Below, piece by piece: positions 460 through 64,000 of a DNA stretch of 64,000 nucleotides (positions are counted from its first letter, which is position 1; each line of letters starts with the position of its first letter). The notes beneath the pieces are model-generated. The model was not told the DNA's origin, did no database searches, and saw only the letters and a list, made by a program, of their open reading frames with translations. The stretch is from contig NC_086108.1 of NCBI RefSeq assembly GCF_963921235.1, forward strand, positions 87,854,001-87,918,000, read 5' to 3'. Position numbers and translations under genes: made by a program. The stretch comes from Mobula hypostoma (Eukaryota).

Positions 460-3125
460 GGAGAGAGATGCAGCTCTTTCCAGTAAGACTCACCATGATG
501 GCTTGTGTGTTTAAATCAATACGGAATGGTGCAAGAACTCTGTGCTGGTTTCCAGATACTGCTCATCGCTAGTGGAGTTTGTGACTGTTAGATGCAGACC
601 ATTTTATTTGCCACGGGAATTTACCATTGTCCTTATAGTCGGTGTGTACATTCCCCCCAGCGCTAATGCTAAGGAGGTGCTCTGTGAACTGTATGGGGCT
701 ATTAGCAAACTGCAGAATGCACACCCTGATGGACTGTTTATTGTCGCCGGAGATTTTAACCACGTGAAACCTAAGTCAGTGCTTCCCAGATTCTATCAGT
801 ATCTGGACTTTGCAACAAGAGGGGAGAGCGCGTTGGATCTTGTTTACACAAACATTCCTGACGCGTACTGGGTGGAGCCCCGCCTCCACCTCGGTTACTC
901 AGACAACATCTCTGGGATTAGCATTATCCCGGCATACAGACCACTCGTCAGGCGCTCCAGACCAGTTCAGAAGCAGATGAAAACCTGGCCAGCAGGAGCC
1001 ATCTCTGCTCTTCAAGACTGCTTTGAGCACACTGACTGGCACATGTTCAGGGAGGCTGCAACCGATGGCGACTCTACCAACTTAGAGGAGTGCACGGCAT
1101 CAGTGACTAGCTACATTAGCAAGTGCATCGATGACATCACTGTGGCCAAGACCATCACTACACACACTAACCAGAAGCCATGGATGACCGTGGAGGTGCG
1201 TGCACTGCTGAGGACCCGTGATTCCGCCTTCAGAGCAGGCGACAAGGCAGCCCTAACAACAGCGAGGGCCAAACTGTCCCGGGCCATCAGAGAGGCAAAG
1301 CGTGTACACGCCCAGCGAATCCACAGCCACTTCCAGGACAGCAGCGACACACAGCGCATGTGGAAGGGCATTCAGGACATCACCAACTACAAGACAACAC
1401 CACCTGCCTGTGCTGGTGATGCCTCCCACCCAGATGCGCTGAACAACTTCTATACTTGTTTTGATCCGGAAAATGACGTGGTGGCAAGAAAGACCACCCC
1501 TCCTCCAAATGACCAGGTGCTATATCTTACCATGGCTGATGTGAGGAGAACCCTGTGCAGGGTCAACCCACAGAAGGCTGCTGGACCAGACAATATTCCT
1601 GGCAGAGTGCTTAGAGGATGTGCAGATCAGCTAGCTGAGATTCTCACTGACATCTTCAACATCTCCAAGCAGCGCCATTGTTCCTACGTGCTTCAAGGCC
1701 ACCACCATTGTCCCCATGCTGATGAAGTCTTCAGTGTCCTCCCTCAACGACTACTGTCCCGTTGCACTTAAGTCCATCATCATGAAGTGTTTCGAGAGGC
1801 TCGTCACGAGGCACATCAAGACCCTGCTGCCTCCCTTACTGGCCCCCCTGCAGTTCATGCACCGTCCCAACTGTTCAACAGACGACGCCATTGCCATCAC
1901 CCTCCACCTGGCCCTAACCCACCTGGACAAAAAAGACATGTACGTTCGAATGCTGTTCATAGACTTCAGTTCAGCATTCGACACAATCATTCCTCAGAAA
2001 CTGACTGGAAAGCTGAGCCCACTGGGCCTGAACACCTCCCTCTGCAAATGGATCCTAGACCTCCTGACGGGAGACCTGAGTCAGTCTGGATTGGCAACAA
2101 CATCTCCAACACCATCACACTGAGCACGGGGGCCCCCCCAGGCCTGTGTGCTCAGTCCATTGCTGTTCACTCTGCTGACCCACGACTGTATTGCAACACA
2201 GAGCTCGAACCACATCATCAAATCCACCGATGACACAACCATGGTGGGTCTCATCAACAAGAACGATGAGTCAGCATACAGAGAGGAGTGCAGCGGCTAA
2301 CAGACTGGTGTAGAGCCAACAACCTGTCTCTGAATGTGAACAAAAGAGATGGTTGTTGACTTCAGGAGGACATGGAGTGACCACTCTCCACTGAACATTG
2401 ACAACTCCTCCATAGAGATCGTTAAGAGCACATAATTTCTTGGTGTTCACCTGGAGGAGAATCTCACTTGGTCCCTCAACACCAGCTCCATAGCAAAAAA
2501 AAGGCCAGCAGCGTCTCTACTTTCTGCAAAGGCTGAGAGAAGTCCATCTCCCAGCCCCCATCCTCACCACATTCTACAGAGATTGTATTGAGAGCACCCT
2601 GAGCAGCTGTATCACTGCCTGTTTCGGAAATTGCACCATCTCGGATCGCAAGACCCTGCAGCGGATAGTGAGGTCAGCTGAGAAGATCATCGGGGTCTCT
2701 CTTCCCACCATTATAGACATTTACACCATACACTGCATCCGTAAAGCAAACAACATTATGAAGGACCCCACACACCCCTCATACAAACTCTTCTCCCTCC
2801 TGCCATCTGGCAAAAGGCACCTAAGTATTCGGGCTCTCACGACCAGACTATGTAAGTTTCTTCCCCCAAGCCATCAGTCTCCTCAATACCCAGAGCCTGG
2901 ACTGATACCAACCTACTGCCCTCTACTGTGCATAATGTCTTGTTTATTATTTATTGTAATGCCTGCACTATTCTGTGCACTTTATGCAGTCCTGGGTAGG
3001 TCTGTAGTCTAGTGTAGTTTTTTGTGTTGTTTTACATAGTTCAGTGTAGTTTTTGCATTGTTCATGTAGCACCATGGTCCTGAAAAATGTTGTCTCATTT
3101 TTACTGTGTACTGTCTTGACTTGAC
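460..3125 (+). mobile_element. Rex1/Babar-type LINE, 5'-truncated, frameshifted APE endonuclease + RT
   Basis: ORF 542-1771 has [30 protein letters not shown] and [13 protein letters not shown] 1716-2123 has [18 protein letters not shown] and [15 protein letters not shown]. The C-terminus (HPSYKLFSLLPSGKR) is followed by a 3' UTR ending in ttgacttgac. Confidence 0.9.
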
Positions 3126-3129
3126 CTGG

Positions 3130-4750
3130 ATGAGGGTGGTGATTAAGGATAACATTGGATTAAGTATATAATCAGATGAACAGAAAATGGTTATAAATGG
3201 AGTGAAAACAGCAAGCCAGAGAATTGGAAGACTTACGGTAAGTGGGAAATGTTAACGAAAAGATGAAGTGGCAGAAGACAGACTGTGGGAGTTAGTAAAC
3301 AACAAATACAGGAGGGCTATAACTGCTACAGTAACAATGCAGAGAAGGGAGTACCAACAAGGTGATCACGAAAAGAAAAGATATTTGGACAGATTAAAAT
3401 GGAATATTGGGGCACTTCTGCTTACATCTTCACCATGGAAGACTTAATAAATGTAATGACATCCTAAAGACTGTTGACGTTAAGATAATTACTATTTCCT
3501 CTCCAAAATACCTGAGATGTTATGGAGAATAAAACCCAAATGCCTTGGGCTTAATTGACTGTTGGCCAGTGTTTGAGATGTTGAGGTATTAGAACATAGA
3601 ACAGGGCAGATCTTTATTTATTCCCCTCCCGTCTGCTTTATTATCAAGGTCTTTCCCTTTAATAATAGAGTATGGGGGCTAAATAAGTGAAAATACAGTA
3701 GAAGAGACCCTTGATTAAATACCACTGCTCTTTAAAGGGCTGAAAGGCGTGCAGACAACATAGCAATGAGGTGAAGTCTAGACAACATTGAAGATCAATA
3801 AATGGCATTTTTCCAAGTTAATAGTAGTCTGTCACTAGTGGAAAACCCAACTTACTTGACTAAACAAAATGAGGAAGCAAAACGCAACAAATGCAGATAT
3901 TCTGGTGATCCTAATCTCCGTGGGAAAGCAAATGACAAGCACAGCCTGTAGAGGACTCAGGCACGTTGAGAAAATGAGCAAAAAACAGCAGATGAAGCAC
4001 AATGTGTGAAGGTTCTATTTTAAGCAGTTGTGGAAAGAATAGGATGGAAAGATAGAAAGAATGAGATAGTGACTTAAAAACTGGTAAGAAACCAGCAGTC
4101 ATTTGCCAGCAGGTGGACCATTGTTGAAGAGATGCAGCTGTTTCTGCACGTGGGTGATTTATTAGTTTCCTTATGTGAGGGAGCAGGTTGAGGCTTTGAC
4201 GTTCTTGTTGCTGTTTCTCCGTGCGGATGATATATTAGATTTTTGTGTGAGGGAGGAGGTTGGAGGCTTGGGGATCTACGTTCTAGCTGCCGTTTTCCAG
4301 GTGAGTGATCTGTTAGCTTTTGTGCCAGCTGGGTTGGGGGTTTGGGATTTGCAATTTGCAAGTTTTTGTTTCTTTTTCTTTTCATGCAGTGGGGCAGGGG
4401 GAGGGTTGATGTCTTTTCTTTCAACCATTTCTCGTTTTTCTATATTTCATGGCTAGCTGGAAAAGACAAATCATGCAGTTGCATTCTGCATACATACCTT
4501 GATAGTAAAATGAGCCTTTGAAACTTTGAACCTTCAATAGGAACACAAATGGGTACTGTCTTTATGGCAGAACATTGGTGCAAAAGGAACGTTGCTAGGA
4601 GTCTACAAAGTTCTTTTGAGATTACATTTCAATTGCCATGTTCAGATTTGGTTTCCTTACCCAGGGAAAGGCAAGCTGAGCTTGAAGTCAGTGCCACATA
4701 GTCACCAGGTTAGCTAAGAAAAAGGGGGTTGTCCTCAAGCAATTAACTAG
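3130..4750 (+). mobile_element. Highly decayed CR1 LINE, interrupted at ~4130-4530
   Basis: Patches are colinear with the young CR1 at 45665-47812, e.g. 3421 catcttcaccatggaagac, 3830 gtcactagtgg, 4605 tacaaag..gttcagatttggtttcc. Confidence 0.5.
4130..4532 (+). mobile_element. Non-autonomous LINE-like 3' UTR/SINE fragment with (TTTGAA) tail
   Basis: Ends in ctttgaaactttgaac and resembles the Rex1-type 3' UTRs at 29300-29495 and 36330-36550. Confidence 0.5.
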
Positions 4751-8016: not shown

Positions 8017-8465
8017 GCTGTGGCATCATTCTGTACCCTTCTTAATTCACTTTCAGTTGACTCTGACAGGGAATGTGGAATGCAAATGGCGGATGGATCT
8101 CCAATCAAGTTGTAGTTGTCTCAGCCAATCACACCCCCACAATGCTGGCCCCTGTTTTTAACAACATAAAAACCCAAAGTGGCTTGTTGTATTTCACTGT
8201 TACAAATGTCATTCCCACACAAGTTATTTTTTATGTTCTTAGTTGGTTATCTGCTGGCTTCAGATAACTTTAGTATCTTTGAAATGCCATTCAAATTCAT
8301 TTTGTGGAATGACTGAAACAACCGAGTCAGTGTCCAATTCCATTTTAATTAATTTGTCATTCACTTCTGATGTAAGCCATATTGCTTGTCTATTGTTAAG
8401 TTTTCACATTGTAAATCTCAAGGCTACTCAGTCCCATGTCATTCTCATCACTATCAGTTGTTTTC
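8017..8465 (-). mobile_element. Ty3/Gypsy pol fragment: aspartic protease region, decayed
   Basis: Manual minus-strand translation across indels gives IWLTSEVNDKLIKMELDTDSVVSVI (DTG motif mutated to DTD, 8308-8343), VGMTFVTVKYN, GFYVV, LWGCDWLRQLQLDW (retropepsin GxDWL) and ESTESELRRV..ATAV. Confidence 0.8.
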
Positions 8466-10957: not shown

Positions 10958-11185
10958 ATCACAAACACGAGAAAATCTGCAGATACTGGAAATCCAAAGA
11001 AACACGCAAAATATTGGAGGAACTCAGCAGGTCAGGCAGCATCTATGGAGAAGAATAAACAGTCTACACTTCAGGCAGAGACCCTTCAGAGTCCTGATGA
11101 AGGATCTCTGCCCGAAACATCAACTGTTTACTCTTTTCCATAGATGTTGCTTGGCCTGCTGAGTTCCTCCAGCATTTAGAGCGTG
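10958..11185. mobile_element. Palindromic Penelope-derived short element
   Basis: Two inverted PLE-end arms centred ~11090, hammerhead-like core on the right arm, 13-bp TSD ttaaaacagaaaa (10945-10957, 11186-11198). Confidence 0.8.
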
Positions 11186-43950: not shown

Positions 43951-44156
43951 TGTTGTGTTTTGAAACTTCAAAACATTAATTTAATTCCAAAGGAAAACAA
44001 AAGATCTTGTACTTAAAGCAAAGCATGCACACATCACGTGGTAGCATCATGATGTATGCAATGATGTATTTTACATGTAACTATAATGAATGATATAAAC
44101 ACTTAAATATCTTTACAAGATTACTCAAATATTACTGTAATATTAAATACACCACA
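43951..44156 (-). mobile_element. Solo LTR of a Gypsy element (206 bp)
   Basis: TG...CA ends with short inverted termini tgttgtg/caccaca; TSD gtttg/gttta; left end aligns with the LTR remnant at 62854-62910. Confidence 0.75.
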
Positions 44157-44578: not shown

Positions 44579-45352
44579 CCTCAGTAAAACAGCCAGCATA
44601 ATCAAAGACCCAACCCCAGACATTCTCTCTTCTCCCCTCTTCCACAGGGCAGAATATACAAGCACCTGAAAGCATGTACCATCAGGCTCAAGGACAGCTT
44701 CCATCCCACTGCTGTAAGATTATTGAATGGTTGCCCAGTATGACAGGCGAACTCTTGACCTCAATCTTTCTGTTTCTTGCACCTCGTTAACCTGCACTTT
44801 CTCTGTAGCTGTTGCACTTCATTCTGCACACTGTTCTTGTTTACAATATTCCTCCTCAAGCACTGTGTAACGTTTTGATCCGTATGAACGTTATGCAGGA
44901 ATGAGCTTCTTAATGGATCTCAGTACATGTGACAATAATGAACAAATTCCAACGCCATTTGGTCCACAAGAGCTCATGCGACAGAATTAAACTTTGGTTT
45001 TAAAGCTGAGTGTAATCGCCCCATAATCCCTTCCATTCAGATTTGCAGAAATTTTGCCAGAATCATTCTTTTAGAAAGAGTCCCAAATCAAGCCTTCAGC
45101 TACGTTATGACATCCTTATGGAATAGTGGATTGATGCAGGGCTACCTCAAGTTCAAATGTCATTGAACCATACACATGTATATAGTTAAACGAAACAGCA
45201 TTCCTCTGAGGCCAAGGCGCAAAACACAGTACCTACAGTCAGACACAGCATTACAATAGCACATAGTCACAAAAATAATATTAGCACAAGTCTCTGAAGG
45301 GTGTCCCCTGAAGGTTGATAGTGTATGGGATGTTGCTTGGTTCTCTGTCAAT

Positions 45353-45664
45353 ACCAGATTGATTCCTGGGATGGCAGGACTTTCATATGAAGAAAGACTG
45401 GATGAATTGGGCTTGTACTCGTTGGAATTTAGAAGATTGAGGAGGGATCTGATTGAAACATATAAGATCCTAAAGGGATTGGACAGGCTAGATGCAGGAA
45501 GATTGTTCCCGATGTTGGGGAAGTCCAGAACGAGAGGTCACAGTTTGAGGATAGAGGGGAAGCCTTTTAGGACCGAGATTAGGAAAAACTTCTTCACACA
45601 GAGAGTGGTGAATCTGTGGAATTCTCTGCCACAGGAAACTGTTGAGGCCAGTTCATTGGCTATA
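45353..45664 (+). repeat. 312-bp copy of CR1 C-terminal segment (matches 47423-47734)
   Basis: Direct comparison shows 5 substitutions and no indels. Confidence 0.95.
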
Positions 45665-47906
45665 ACAAAACAAACAAAGGTTCTGAACTTAAAGAGGGGT
45701 AACTTTGAAGGTATGAGACGTGAATCAGCTAAGATAGACTGGCAAATGACACTTAAAGGATTGACGGTGGATATGCAATGGCAAGCATTTATAGGTTGCA
45801 TGGATGAACTACAACAATTGTTCATCCCAGTTTGGCAAAAGAATAAATCAAGGAAGGTAGTGCACCCGTGGCTGACAAGAGAAATTAGGGATAGTATCAA
45901 TTCCAAAGAAGTAGCATACAAATTAGCCAGAGAAAGTGGCTCACCTGAGGACTGGGAGAAATTCAGAGTTCAGCAGAGGAGGACAAAGGGCTTAATTAGG
46001 AAGGGGGAAAAAGATTATGAGAGAAAACTGGCAGAGAACATAAAAACGGACTGTAAAAGCTTTTATAGTTATGTAAAAAGGAAAAGACTGGTAAAGACAA
46101 ATGTAGGTCCCCTGCAGCCAGAAACAGGTGAATTGCTTATGGGGAGCAAGGACATGGCAGACAAATTGAATAATTACTTTGGTTCTGTCTTCACTAAAGA
46201 GGACATAAATAATCTTCCAGAAATAGTAAGGGACAGAGGGTCCAGTGAGATGGAGGAACTGAGTGAAATACATGTTAGTAGGGAAGTGGTGTTAGGTAAA
46301 TTGAAGGGATTGAAGGCAGATAAATCCCCAGGACCAGATGGTCTGCATCCCAGAGTGCTTAAGGAAGTAGCCCAAGAAATAGTGGATGCATTAGTGATAA
46401 TTTTTCAAAACTCGTTAGATTCTGGACTAGTTCCTGAGGATTGGAGGGTGGCTAATGTAACCCCAATTTTTAAAAATGGAGGGAGAGAGAAACCGGGTAA
46501 TTATAGACCGGTTAGCCTAACGTCGGCGGTGGGGAAACTGCTGGAGTCAGTTATCAAGGATGTGATAACAGCACATTTGGAAAGCGGAGAAATGATCGGA
46601 CAAAGTCAGCATGGATTTGTGAAAGGAAAATCATGTCTGACGAATCTCATAGAATTTTTTGAGGATGTAACTAGTAGAGTGGATAGGGGAGAACCAGTGG
46701 ATGTGGTATATTTGGATTTTCAAAAGGCTTTTGACAAGGTCCCACACAGGAGATTAGTGTGCAAACTTAAAGCTCACGGTATTGGGGGTAAGGTATTGGT
46801 GTGGGTGGAGAATTGGTTAGCAGACAGGAAGCAAAGAGTGGGAATAAACGGGACCTTTTCAGAATGGCAGGCGGTGACTAGTGGGGTACCGCAAGGCTCA
46901 GTGCTGGGACCCCAGTTGTTTACAATATATATTAATGACTTGGATGAGGGAATTAAATGCAGCATCTCCAAGTTTGCGGATGACACGAAGCTGGGCGGCA
47001 GTGTTAGCAGTGAGGAGGATGCTAAGAGGATGCAGGGTGACTTGGATAGGTTGGGTGAGTGGGCAAACTCATGGCAGATGCAATTTAATGTGGATAAATG
47101 TGAAGTTATCCACTTTGGTGGCAAAAATAGGAAAACAGATTATTATCTGAATGGTGGCCAATTAGGAAAAGGGGAGGTGCAACGAGACCTGGGTGTCATT
47201 ATACACCAGTCATTGAAAGTGGGCATGCAGGTACAGCAGGCGGTGAAAAAGGCGAATGGTATGCTGGCATTTATAGCGAGAGGATTCGAGTACAGGAGCA
47301 GGGAGGTACTACTGCAGTTGTACAAGGCCTTGGTGAGACCACACCTGGAGTATTGTGTGCAGTTTTGGTCCCCTAATCTGAGGAAAGACATCTTTGCCAT
47401 AGAGGGAGTACAAAGAAGGTTCACCAGATTGATTCCTGGGATGGCAGGACTTTCATATGAAGAAAGACTGGATGAACTGGGCTTGTACTCGTTGGAATTT
47501 AGAAGATTGAGGGGGGATCTGATTGAAACGTATAAGATCCTAAAGGGATTGGACAGGCTAGATGCAGGAAGATTGTTCCCGATGTTGGGGAAGTCCAGAA
47601 CGAGGGGTCACAGTTTGAGGATAGAGGGGAAGCCTTTTAGGACCGAGATTAGGAAAAACTTCTTCACACAGAGAGTGGTGAATCTGTGGAATTCTCTGCC
47701 ACAGCAAACTGTTGAGGCCAGTTCATTGGCTATATTTAAGAGGGAGTTAGATATGGCCCTTGTGGCTACAGGGGTTAGGGGGTATGGAGGGAAGGCTGGG
47801 GCGGGGTTCTGAGTTGGATGATCAGCCATGATCATAATAAATGGCGGTGCAGGCTCGAAGGGCCGAATGGCCTACTCCTGCACCTATTTTCTATGTTTCT
47901 ATGTTT
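45665..47906 (+). mobile_element. Young CR1/HER1 LINE, 5'-truncated, with uninterrupted RT ORF
   Basis: Open frame to the stop at 47812: [46 protein letters not shown]; (TTCTATGT)2 tail; no endonuclease domain. Confidence 0.95.
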
Positions 47907-62853: not shown

Positions 62854-63520
62854 TGTTGTGTTTTGCAACATCAAACCATTAAACTAGTTCAAAAGAAGAC
62901 ACAGGAGTCCAGGTTTGACTGAGTTTACAGTTGATGTTTCAGGCCAAGGTTCCTCATCAAAACTGGAAAAAAAAGTTGAGAAGTTAGAGCAAGAAGGTGG
63001 GGGGGAGGGGTGGAGGAAGTACAAGGTGGTAGGTGATAGGTGTAACTGGGATGGGGAGGGGCAAAGAAAAGGAAGCTGATTGGTGAAAGAGATGAAGGAC
63101 TGGAAAGGGGGGAACCTGATAGGAGGGAGTACAAGACCATGGAAGGAAAGGAAGGGGGAGGAGCACCAAAGGACAACACTCCTCCCTGCTTAGCTACAAG
63201 CTCCAACTCAATGTAGAATGCATCTCACCTATTTACAGAGCATATTATCAACAAAACTACTATATACAGACATTCACATTAGTAAATTTTAAATTTTCCG
63301 TTTCAGGCCTAAAAACTTAATTGCTGTGTAGGATTTCTTACTTTTTTGGAATAATGCCTTTCATTACATGGGTGATGATCTCTCTGTTTGGCAGATGAGA
63401 CTTGTTGCTGTGAAAACAACCACAAGTTCTAGGGCCTCCTCCATGGTGTTTGTAGGAGATGGCTCTGAGGCTGCAGGGATTTGTTCTGACAGCTCTGGAC
63501 ACCTTTCCTCTTCTTTTAGT
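62854..63520 (-). mobile_element. Gypsy 3' end: pol-like C-terminal tail, PPT and disrupted 3' LTR
   Basis: Minus: P/E/S/T-rich tail EERCPELSEQIPAASEPSPT..SQQQVSSAKQ..NERHYSKKVRNPTQQL* (cf. Gypsy RRYP.R.R.PP.RL); PPT aagcagggaggag (63179-63191) directly followed by TGTTGT; LTR end 62854-62925 matches solo LTR 43951. Confidence 0.75.
62926..63172 (-). mobile_element. Penelope-like pLTR fragment inserted in and replacing most of the LTR
   Basis: cagttgatgtttcaggccaaggttcctcatcaaaactgg plus purine-rich tract, as in other PLE copies. Confidence 0.72.
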
Positions 63521-64000
63521 TTGTGCATCTTGACCTTGGAAAGATGCATTTAGCTCACTGGAGTATTCTATTATTAATCGTTCTATTGCTCCGTTTATGA
63601 TCTGAACTCTCCTCTTGGTTTCCTCGTCCACAACATGTGACTATTCGAATTTTCTGTTTGTATCTCTTGTCTCTTTTCTTTTCAGCCTTCCATTCATCTA
63701 GCTGGGATTTAGTCTTTATGTCTAGTTTGACAAGCAGCTTTTTGTCTCCCACTTAAAGTTCCTGCAATAACCTTAATGCACACAGTAGATTTTGTTTCTT
63801 TATACTCACAAAAGACGAGTGCTTGCAACTTTCCTTAAACTCCTTTATCTCTCATCCAGTTTTAAACAAAACCACACTAGGCCTGATTAACATATCAGAG
63901 GCATTCTCAGATCTATTACTTGCACCAACTGTTGCAGCTGAACCATTGCTTTCATCACTTTCACACTTTCTCTGAACAACAAGGTCTTCCCTTGCTTTCC
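63521..64000 (-). pseudogene. RBM25: RBM25 fragment (RRM and following helix), apparently intronless, with stops and frameshifts, copy 2; runs off window
   Basis: QRKCESDES..ASDMLIR..CGFV*NW..GKLQALVFCEYKE..ALRLLQEL*VGDKKLLVKLDIKTKSQLDEWKAEKK..DEETKRRVQIINGAIERLIIEYSSELNA, matching RBM25 as recalled (IGEKKLLVKVDAKTKAQLDEWK..DEETKRRDQMIKGAIEVLIREYSSELNA). Confidence 0.92.

Follow-up and report, generated by a model that had tools for sequence, protein, structure and literature searches.

Tan et al. (2016; PMC5131818) reported LTR-mediated retrocopies in animals and proposed their continued copying as non-autonomous elements. In the sections of that paper considered here, a partial spliced mRNA replaces an internal part of the ORF while both LTRs are retained, both switch points show microsimilarity (median 6 bp), and two retrocopies are inserted at multiple sites. 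The RBM25-carrying hybrids reported below have the same organization, with 7 and 9 nt of microsimilarity, and their junction 17-mer occurs 266 times, from which more than 1,000 copies are estimated. Unlike the retrocopies in those sections, the hybrids vary in length, show signs of exchange with helper lineages, and are old and not polymorphic. The mechanism is known (Tan et al. 2016); what differs is the scale and the exchange with helpers.

Host mRNA carried and co-copied within a vertebrate LTR element is also known from CrocERV29 (KIT-ligand) and CrocERV31 (nectin3), captures which, in the relevant part of Chong et al. (2014; PMC4299795), are shared by related species. These are retroviruses, present as 9 and 6 copies, which carry whole ORFs under purifying selection, whereas the RBM25 hybrid is a Gypsy element carrying an internal fragment in neutral decay. 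Passages on maize Bs1 and human HERV-K/FAM8A1 (PMC7264820, PMC5131818) likewise describe LTR elements with transduced host gene sequence, in other hosts and lineages, Bs1 having pieces of three genes. The K02A2.6-like polyproteins of fishes (P0124 and P0126) comprise gag, CCHC, protease, RT, RNase H and integrase in a single ORF and end in a C-terminal motif similar to that of the hybrid tail; by comparison, the hybrid match stops at residue ~419 of 1319 and returns in the last ~65 residues. In retroviral oncogene capture the cargo is under selection. The RBM25 hybrid shows the testable features of LTR-mediated retrocopies and lacks the selected cargo of the oncogene and crocodilian captures.

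No description of an RBM25-carrying Gypsy family was found in the literature, Repbase and Dfam lying outside the search. RBM25 does not appear in the main text, as far as it was available, of two vertebrate retrocopy surveys, nor in three supplements of one of them; the supplements of the bioRxiv survey lay outside the search. In the available part of 10.64898/2026.06.26.734816, the top retrocopy parents in cartilaginous fishes are MIPOL1, SUDS3, SDF2L1, SLU7 and ZNF276, not RBM25. These are not housekeeping genes, and we speculate that they might also be mobile-element cargo.

The RBM25 copy in the window

The window is the whole 64,000-nt stretch of Mobula hypostoma DNA that was analysed. 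Its last part (62854-64000, minus strand) is a decayed, 5′-truncated copy of a non-autonomous Ty3/Gypsy family carrying RBM25, and further pieces of the family lie elsewhere in the window. The features are as follows.

63503..64000, minus strand: spliced RBM25 cargo, short form, with indels and stops (from alignment to host mRNA)
64000-63879, 63878-63822, 63821-63665 and 63664-63503, minus strand: exons 4, 5, 6 and 7, respectively, inside this cargo
63192..63502, minus strand: C-terminal tail of a Gypsy integrase with 3′ untranslated sequence (from the match to RT-bearing relative L163)
63179..63191, minus strand: polypurine tract (from sequence; other family copies also have one at the equivalent position before the 3′ LTR)
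63173..63178, minus strand: start of the 3′ LTR, 6 bp, TGTTGT
62914..63172, strand not assigned: unrelated pyrimidine-rich sequence in place of the middle of the 3′ LTR, without match to family LTRs
62854..62913, minus strand: end of the 3′ LTR, last ~60 bp, terminating in CAACA, 78-88% to family LTRs
43951..44156, minus strand: solo LTR of the same family, flanked by GTTTG and GTTTA, a 5-bp duplication with one mismatch
8026..8463, minus strand: second copy, decayed Gypsy protease region, 77-78% to family copies, residues 288-401 of polyprotein P0124
7675..8025, minus strand: second copy, spliced RBM25 cargo with its 3′ side cut off, mRNA nt 147-499, 86% to host mRNA

Alignment to the host mRNA (82% identity) reveals exons 4-7 contiguous and without introns, in keeping with the intron loss proposed in a first-pass annotation of the sequence. 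That annotation had also described the fragment at 64000-63521 as having no interruptions; introns are indeed absent, but the alignment contains nine indels, none of them a multiple of three and eight of them within the window, and three stops in the host frame. The RBM25 fragment had been thought to run straight into a P/E/S/T-rich tail with a RHY..VRNP motif. These parts are in place, but no two of them share a frame: exon 7 is in one, the P/E/S/T-rich sequence in a second and the motif in the third. The cargo extends 86 bp past position 64000, taking in a 48-nt cassette exon and the final 10 nt of exon 3. On its other side, the tail aligns, as anticipated, to the pol C-terminus of an autonomous type of element, with 77% identity to the integrase end of L163 across 330 nt, and it matches nine RT-type loci.

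The polypurine tract, TGTTGT and the LTR end at 62854 are all located where they had been annotated. The far LTR was correctly placed with respect to this end and to the solo LTR at 43951, but it is reduced to 6 plus ~60 bp; the end of the pyrimidine-rich sequence between the two remnants resembles a repeat at 11095-11133 (39-bp match, E 3e-4). Gypsy protease had been expected beyond 64000. Within the family this expectation is borne out (80 of 94 copies), but the window copy keeps only ~100 bp of the protease end upstream of its cargo, and neither gag nor the protease core was found in the sequence past 64000. Nor does that sequence supply the 5′ LTR: the nearest candidate, 850-1080 bp past the window, was rejected since it is bordered on both sides by its own GTTAC duplication and is without a primer site, and it is therefore a separate solo LTR.

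A Pfam search of eight window ORFs found no domain at this locus. The open frame of a sister copy matches RRM_1, and the named matches among the best 120 in a protein search are RBM25 or RRM proteins. The second copy, which was to provide the junction from Gypsy protease to RBM25, does so at 8463-7675, and QRKCESDES is common to both window copies.

Lone LTRs of the family were also observed at G000:C1:99876650 and 99906403 (both within the 200 kb that precede the parent gene), in L031 just beyond the window, and at L121:8734-8976, next to another copy. A separate feature of the window is an 850-codon open frame for a LINE-type reverse transcriptase (RVT_1) at 45260-47812 on the plus strand; it has a 300-bp direct repeat, 98% identical and 2070 bp apart, and appears young.

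Family organization and the captured mRNA

For the family survey, the window fragment was used as query against the 3.48-Gb genome, and 40 of 2608 first-look candidates were scored; 10-kb regions around 19, and later 20 more, copies were then compared. Similarity between loci is limited to the unit between ~245-bp direct repeats and ends at the LTR ends. Whole hybrid elements are ~2.8-3.3 kb in size and consist of LTR, tRNA-Ser primer site, gag, protease, RBM25, integrase tail, polypurine tract and LTR, and the non-autonomous arrangement put forward in the first-pass annotation (LTR-gag-PR::RBM25-pol tail-PPT-LTR) is thereby borne out across the sampled copies. Direct LTR pairs of ~245 bp with TG...CA ends are present in 19 hybrid copies, and the elements have their own 5-bp target duplications. 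In 17 elements with outer ends clear enough to be read by eye, 62 of 85 bases are identical between the two 5-bp flanks, against a permutation mean of 26 and with none of 10,000 permutations as high; copies with missing or ambiguous ends, among others L050, L107, L110, L165, L167, L171, L175 and L176, were left out of this count. The primer site is complementary to the 3′-end of tRNA-Ser(GCT), matching a mean of 8.5 of 11 bases in 24 hybrid copies, which rises to 10.4 when C>T and G>A are allowed.

The portion of P0124 matched by the hybrids upstream of RBM25 (residues 1 to ~419) comprises gag, zinc knuckle and protease; RT, RNase H and the integrase core are absent between the protease and the tail. 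Alignment to the RT-type relatives and the polyprotein reveals that this part of pol is replaced by RBM25, not interrupted by it. The RT-type relatives, which possess the same LTR, gag-protease and tail as the hybrids, are colinear with P0124 (gag-PR-RT-RH-IN) and are themselves fragmented or deleted. P0124 and P0126 are Ty3/Gypsy polyproteins 57-65% identical to the family in gag, and homology to such K02A2.6-like proteins indicates the probable place of the family within Ty3/Gypsy.

Both junctions recur, as had been proposed: the protease end adjoins the cargo in 80 of 94 copies and the tail adjoins it in 76, with no Gypsy sequence upstream in five copies and no tail within the examined flank in 11. 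When the protease end served as query, 18 of 30 loci continued into RBM25, one into a truncated RBM25 start, and 11 into RT. TGCCACA (7 nt) at the 5′ junction is common to the host mRNA and the RT-type relatives and is read in one frame in both; GAGAAGAAA (9 nt), likewise common to both at the 3′ junction, is read in different frames, and the cargo is out of frame with the pol tail. At random switch points such overlaps are expected by chance with frequencies of 7e-4 (at least 7 nt) and 5e-5 (at least 9 nt), and these microhomologies are the LTR-retrocopy signature of Tan et al. Open frames span the protease into the RRM in nine copies.

Many deletion derivatives arose from the Gypsy family to which the hybrids belong. 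The RT-type copies L160, L165, L166 and L171 have big internal pol deletions, L165 rejoining directly before the tail, and L114 contains an internal tandem duplication that takes in the end of the protease and the greater part of the cargo.

The parent RBM25 gene is intact at G000:C1:99840627-99791418, with GT-AG introns that are absent from the cargo. It was located by searching with the C-terminus of a fish protein; a search with the PWI domain matched putative SRRM1-like and PRPF3-like exons, not RBM25. The cargo spans RBM25 codons 49 to ~406 (~255 after internal deletion) and joins exon 3, a cassette exon and exons 4-10. It opens with the last 10 nt of exon 3; of 94 non-redundant copies, 64 start at mRNA nt 147 and 80 at 147-152. 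Long copies run to nt ~1218 in exon 10 (21 of 94 reach at least nt 1200), those of the most frequent class stop around nt 760 (38 of 94 at 700-799), and others have lost internal parts of the RE-rich exon 9. A query with the 3′ end of the gene gave three matches, all host exons, so that only the captured part of RBM25 was amplified. Because of the hybrid copies, RBM25 genes will be overcounted and reads mis-mapped, and the copies may escape retrocopy pipelines in which repeat-masked loci are discarded.

The 48-nt cassette exon (L091, G000:C1:99832586-99832633) is bordered by AG and GT in the gene, and its peptide is identical in RBM25 of Heptranchias perlo and missing from the bony-vertebrate RBM25 proteins compared. 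Among the joints listed for three RNA-like runs from two organisms, it is spliced to exon 4. All three runs also contain a 30-nt host microexon located after exon 3 (L201:8675-8705; G000:C1:99837475-99837504, minus), which is spliced between exon 3 and either the cassette exon or exon 4. The element is without this microexon and joins exon 3 straight to the cassette exon, as does the assembled protein P0145. The RBM25 splice form kept in the element may be older, or else rarer; in the former case the copies would preserve an old one. RNA contigs were also seen to link exon 3 to an upstream exon ending near 99839825 (G000:C1, L092), not to coding exon 2; this exon looks LINE-derived, and we take it to be possibly an exonised repeat. 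No protease-RBM25 fusion protein was found in 26 matches or in the best 150 of 1034, a result that is silent on other species. P0189 was considered as such a fusion and rejected, its upstream sequence being unrelated.

Copy number, age and distribution

Exact matches to the 17-mer spanning the hybrid junction number 266 and those to its RT-type equivalent 692, with no match to the controls. Since 10 of 80 sampled junction-bearing hybrids retain the 17-mer, the genome would contain ~2,100 copies (1,200-4,300), in line with the high copy number suspected from the two copies in the window. This estimate is probably low because the sample favours well-preserved copies, all sampled copies being top-scoring matches rather than random ones. 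The hybrid share is ~28% at equal retention and up to ~40% using the RT-type retention of 3/14; a share of ~60% (18 of the 30 protease-end loci) was rejected, the hybrid query being biased and the exact junction counts giving 28%. The family represents an LTR-made retrocopy grown to more than 1,000 copies in a vertebrate, and a large sample for dating, for tests of selection on cargo, and for helper-passenger recombination.

The sampled hybrid copies are old and broken. The LTR-LTR K2P distance has a median of 0.25 in 19 hybrids (0.18-0.36) and is 0.24-0.25 in four RT-type copies. Thirteen copies picked on their protease region lie 0.156 from the host mRNA and have 2-9 frameshifts each, and none of the best 40 of 2387 candidates exceeds 94% to host exon 7. 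The ~19 near-fixed synonymous differences between cargo and host amount to roughly 0.12 per synonymous site (an estimate), which is near half the LTR distance, and the capture therefore likely took place shortly before the burst.

In searches with one element at 80% likeness, the organism B run gave ~95,000 contigs; in organism D one contig crosses the hybrid junction and extends more than 200 nt to either side of it, and in organism E 4-7 contigs lie just within the cargo. Words from a host RBM25 stretch are present at 47-59% in organism B, 13% in D and 8% in E. From the element contigs in these organisms it follows that the family is older than the split of the host and organisms B, D and E. 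In the small run of organism C, no junction-bridging contig was among those listed.

Selection, recombination and origin of the hybrid

We consider it highly probable that RBM25 came to occupy the position of RT, RNase H and the greater part of integrase through one double template switch, after which the hybrid, with a neutral cargo, was copied in trans and altered by deletions and recombination before it died out. An RBM25 mRNA would have been packaged in a Gypsy particle, where reverse transcriptase switched onto the mRNA and back. The hybrid retained LTRs, primer site and polypurine tract, so that RT and integrase from elsewhere could have copied it in trans; these enzymes would likely have been those of the RT-bearing relatives, to which the shared parts, the equal age and the recombinant L167 (below) point indirectly. 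The short cargo form may have arisen by deletion between purine-rich stretches in exons 7 and 10. Through co-packaging with helpers, the single cargo would have recombined onto many gag-protease backbones, and the hybrid family would afterwards have become extinct.

Within the cargo, private changes (nonsynonymous/synonymous/stop, 2449/832/174) agree with a neutral expectation of 0.70/0.25/0.05, as do the shared non-CpG changes at 10-75% (64/23/1). A stricter CpG filter leaves 11 nonsynonymous and 3 synonymous shared variants (14-17 variants; low power), and many of the shared variants at 10-25% may be recurrent mutation. Frameshift-free cover of more than 550 nt is limited to 2 of 94 copies. 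The near-fixed differences between cargo and host (19 synonymous, 1 nonsynonymous) fit change in the host gene, the shark protein agreeing with the element at the lone amino-acid site. On these counts RBM25 is probably a neutral passenger. The analogy with oncogene capture that was drawn at first is unsupported because the cargo decays neutrally in the element and shows no purifying selection there.

Selection has nevertheless to be weighed, as synonymous changes are over-represented among the shared variants of gag-protease (49 nonsynonymous and 40 synonymous in 47 hybrids, compared with 76% nonsynonymous among private ones; p below 1e-4; 15 and 12 among linked shared variants, p 0.014; codon phase mapped on one copy, 260 codons). 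It is quite unlikely, in our judgement, that selection favoured a Gag-protease-RBM25 fusion read in one frame, with RRM and RE-rich region, or a purine-rich RNA, as an aid to RNA export, stability or packaging. The in-frame 5′ junction, the nine copies mentioned in which open frames pass through it, and the ~28-40% share of hybrids among copies with a protease-end junction would all agree with a selected cargo; yet the cargo and the pol tail are in different frames at the 3′ junction, the RE-rich region is often lost in large part, almost no copy is free of frameshifts over the length given above, the near-fixed differences are explained by the host gene, and amino-acid changes are not depleted among the shared cargo variants in either set, the smaller having low power. 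Unlikely too is a replication advantage of such a fusion or RNA that carried it by recombination in a sweep across Gypsy lineages to ~1/3 of copies; if true, this would amount to the domestication of a host RNA-binding module by a retrotransposon.

We read the gag-protease diversity as older, constrained variation of helper lineages, onto which one cargo recombined repeatedly. Compared within one set of 43 copies, gag-protease has 6.7 shared variants per 100 columns and the cargo 1.6, a fourfold difference in density, and of the 76 gag-protease variants 55 are also polymorphic in 14 RT-type copies. Another 19 of the 76 are nearly absent from the RT-type copies, from which we surmise that the hybrids had their own lineages too. 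Shared gag-protease polymorphism together with a near-uniform cargo suggests one capture and later exchange of backbones by recombination. Hybrids and RT-type copies intermingle in star-like trees (gag-protease, 61 copies; tail, 49) with distances of 0.213 within hybrids and 0.209 between hybrids and RT-type; since these trees do not separate the lineages, the case for recombination rests on the column counts, a projection onto one copy. The copy L167 (G000:C96:23886500-23896499) is of RT type, passes at the RNase H start into RBM25 nt 697-766 and thence into the tail, and is a direct helper-passenger recombinant.

Uniform cargo on varied backbones is also what several independent captures of RBM25 by different Gypsy lineages, at the identical two microhomologies, would predict. 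BLASTOPIA has a fixed switch-back site in the part of Tan et al. (PMC5131818) that deals with it, and the site before the tail was reused by the deletion derivative L165. We regard such captures as very improbable, as each would need both identical breakpoints and the identical splice form (exon 3 to cassette exon, the 30-nt microexon skipped), no other host sequence follows the protease in the 30 protease-end loci, and recombination of co-packaged RNAs sharing more than 1 kb, which L167 exemplifies, is simpler.

That LINE-made processed pseudogenes or segmental duplicates came to lie within Gypsy sequence by chance has a negligible probability: the genome is LINE-rich and some copies are without upstream Gypsy sequence (5 of 94) or tail (11 of 94, within the examined flank), but the LINE hallmarks (poly(A), 3′-anchored copy) are not seen, the cargo comes from within the mRNA, has fixed ends, stops inside the CDS and is followed by the Gypsy tail, the gene's 3′ end matches the three host exons only, pol is replaced and not interrupted, similarity ends at the LTR ends of elements with their own target duplications, and the recurring junctions refute this origin for the sampled copies.
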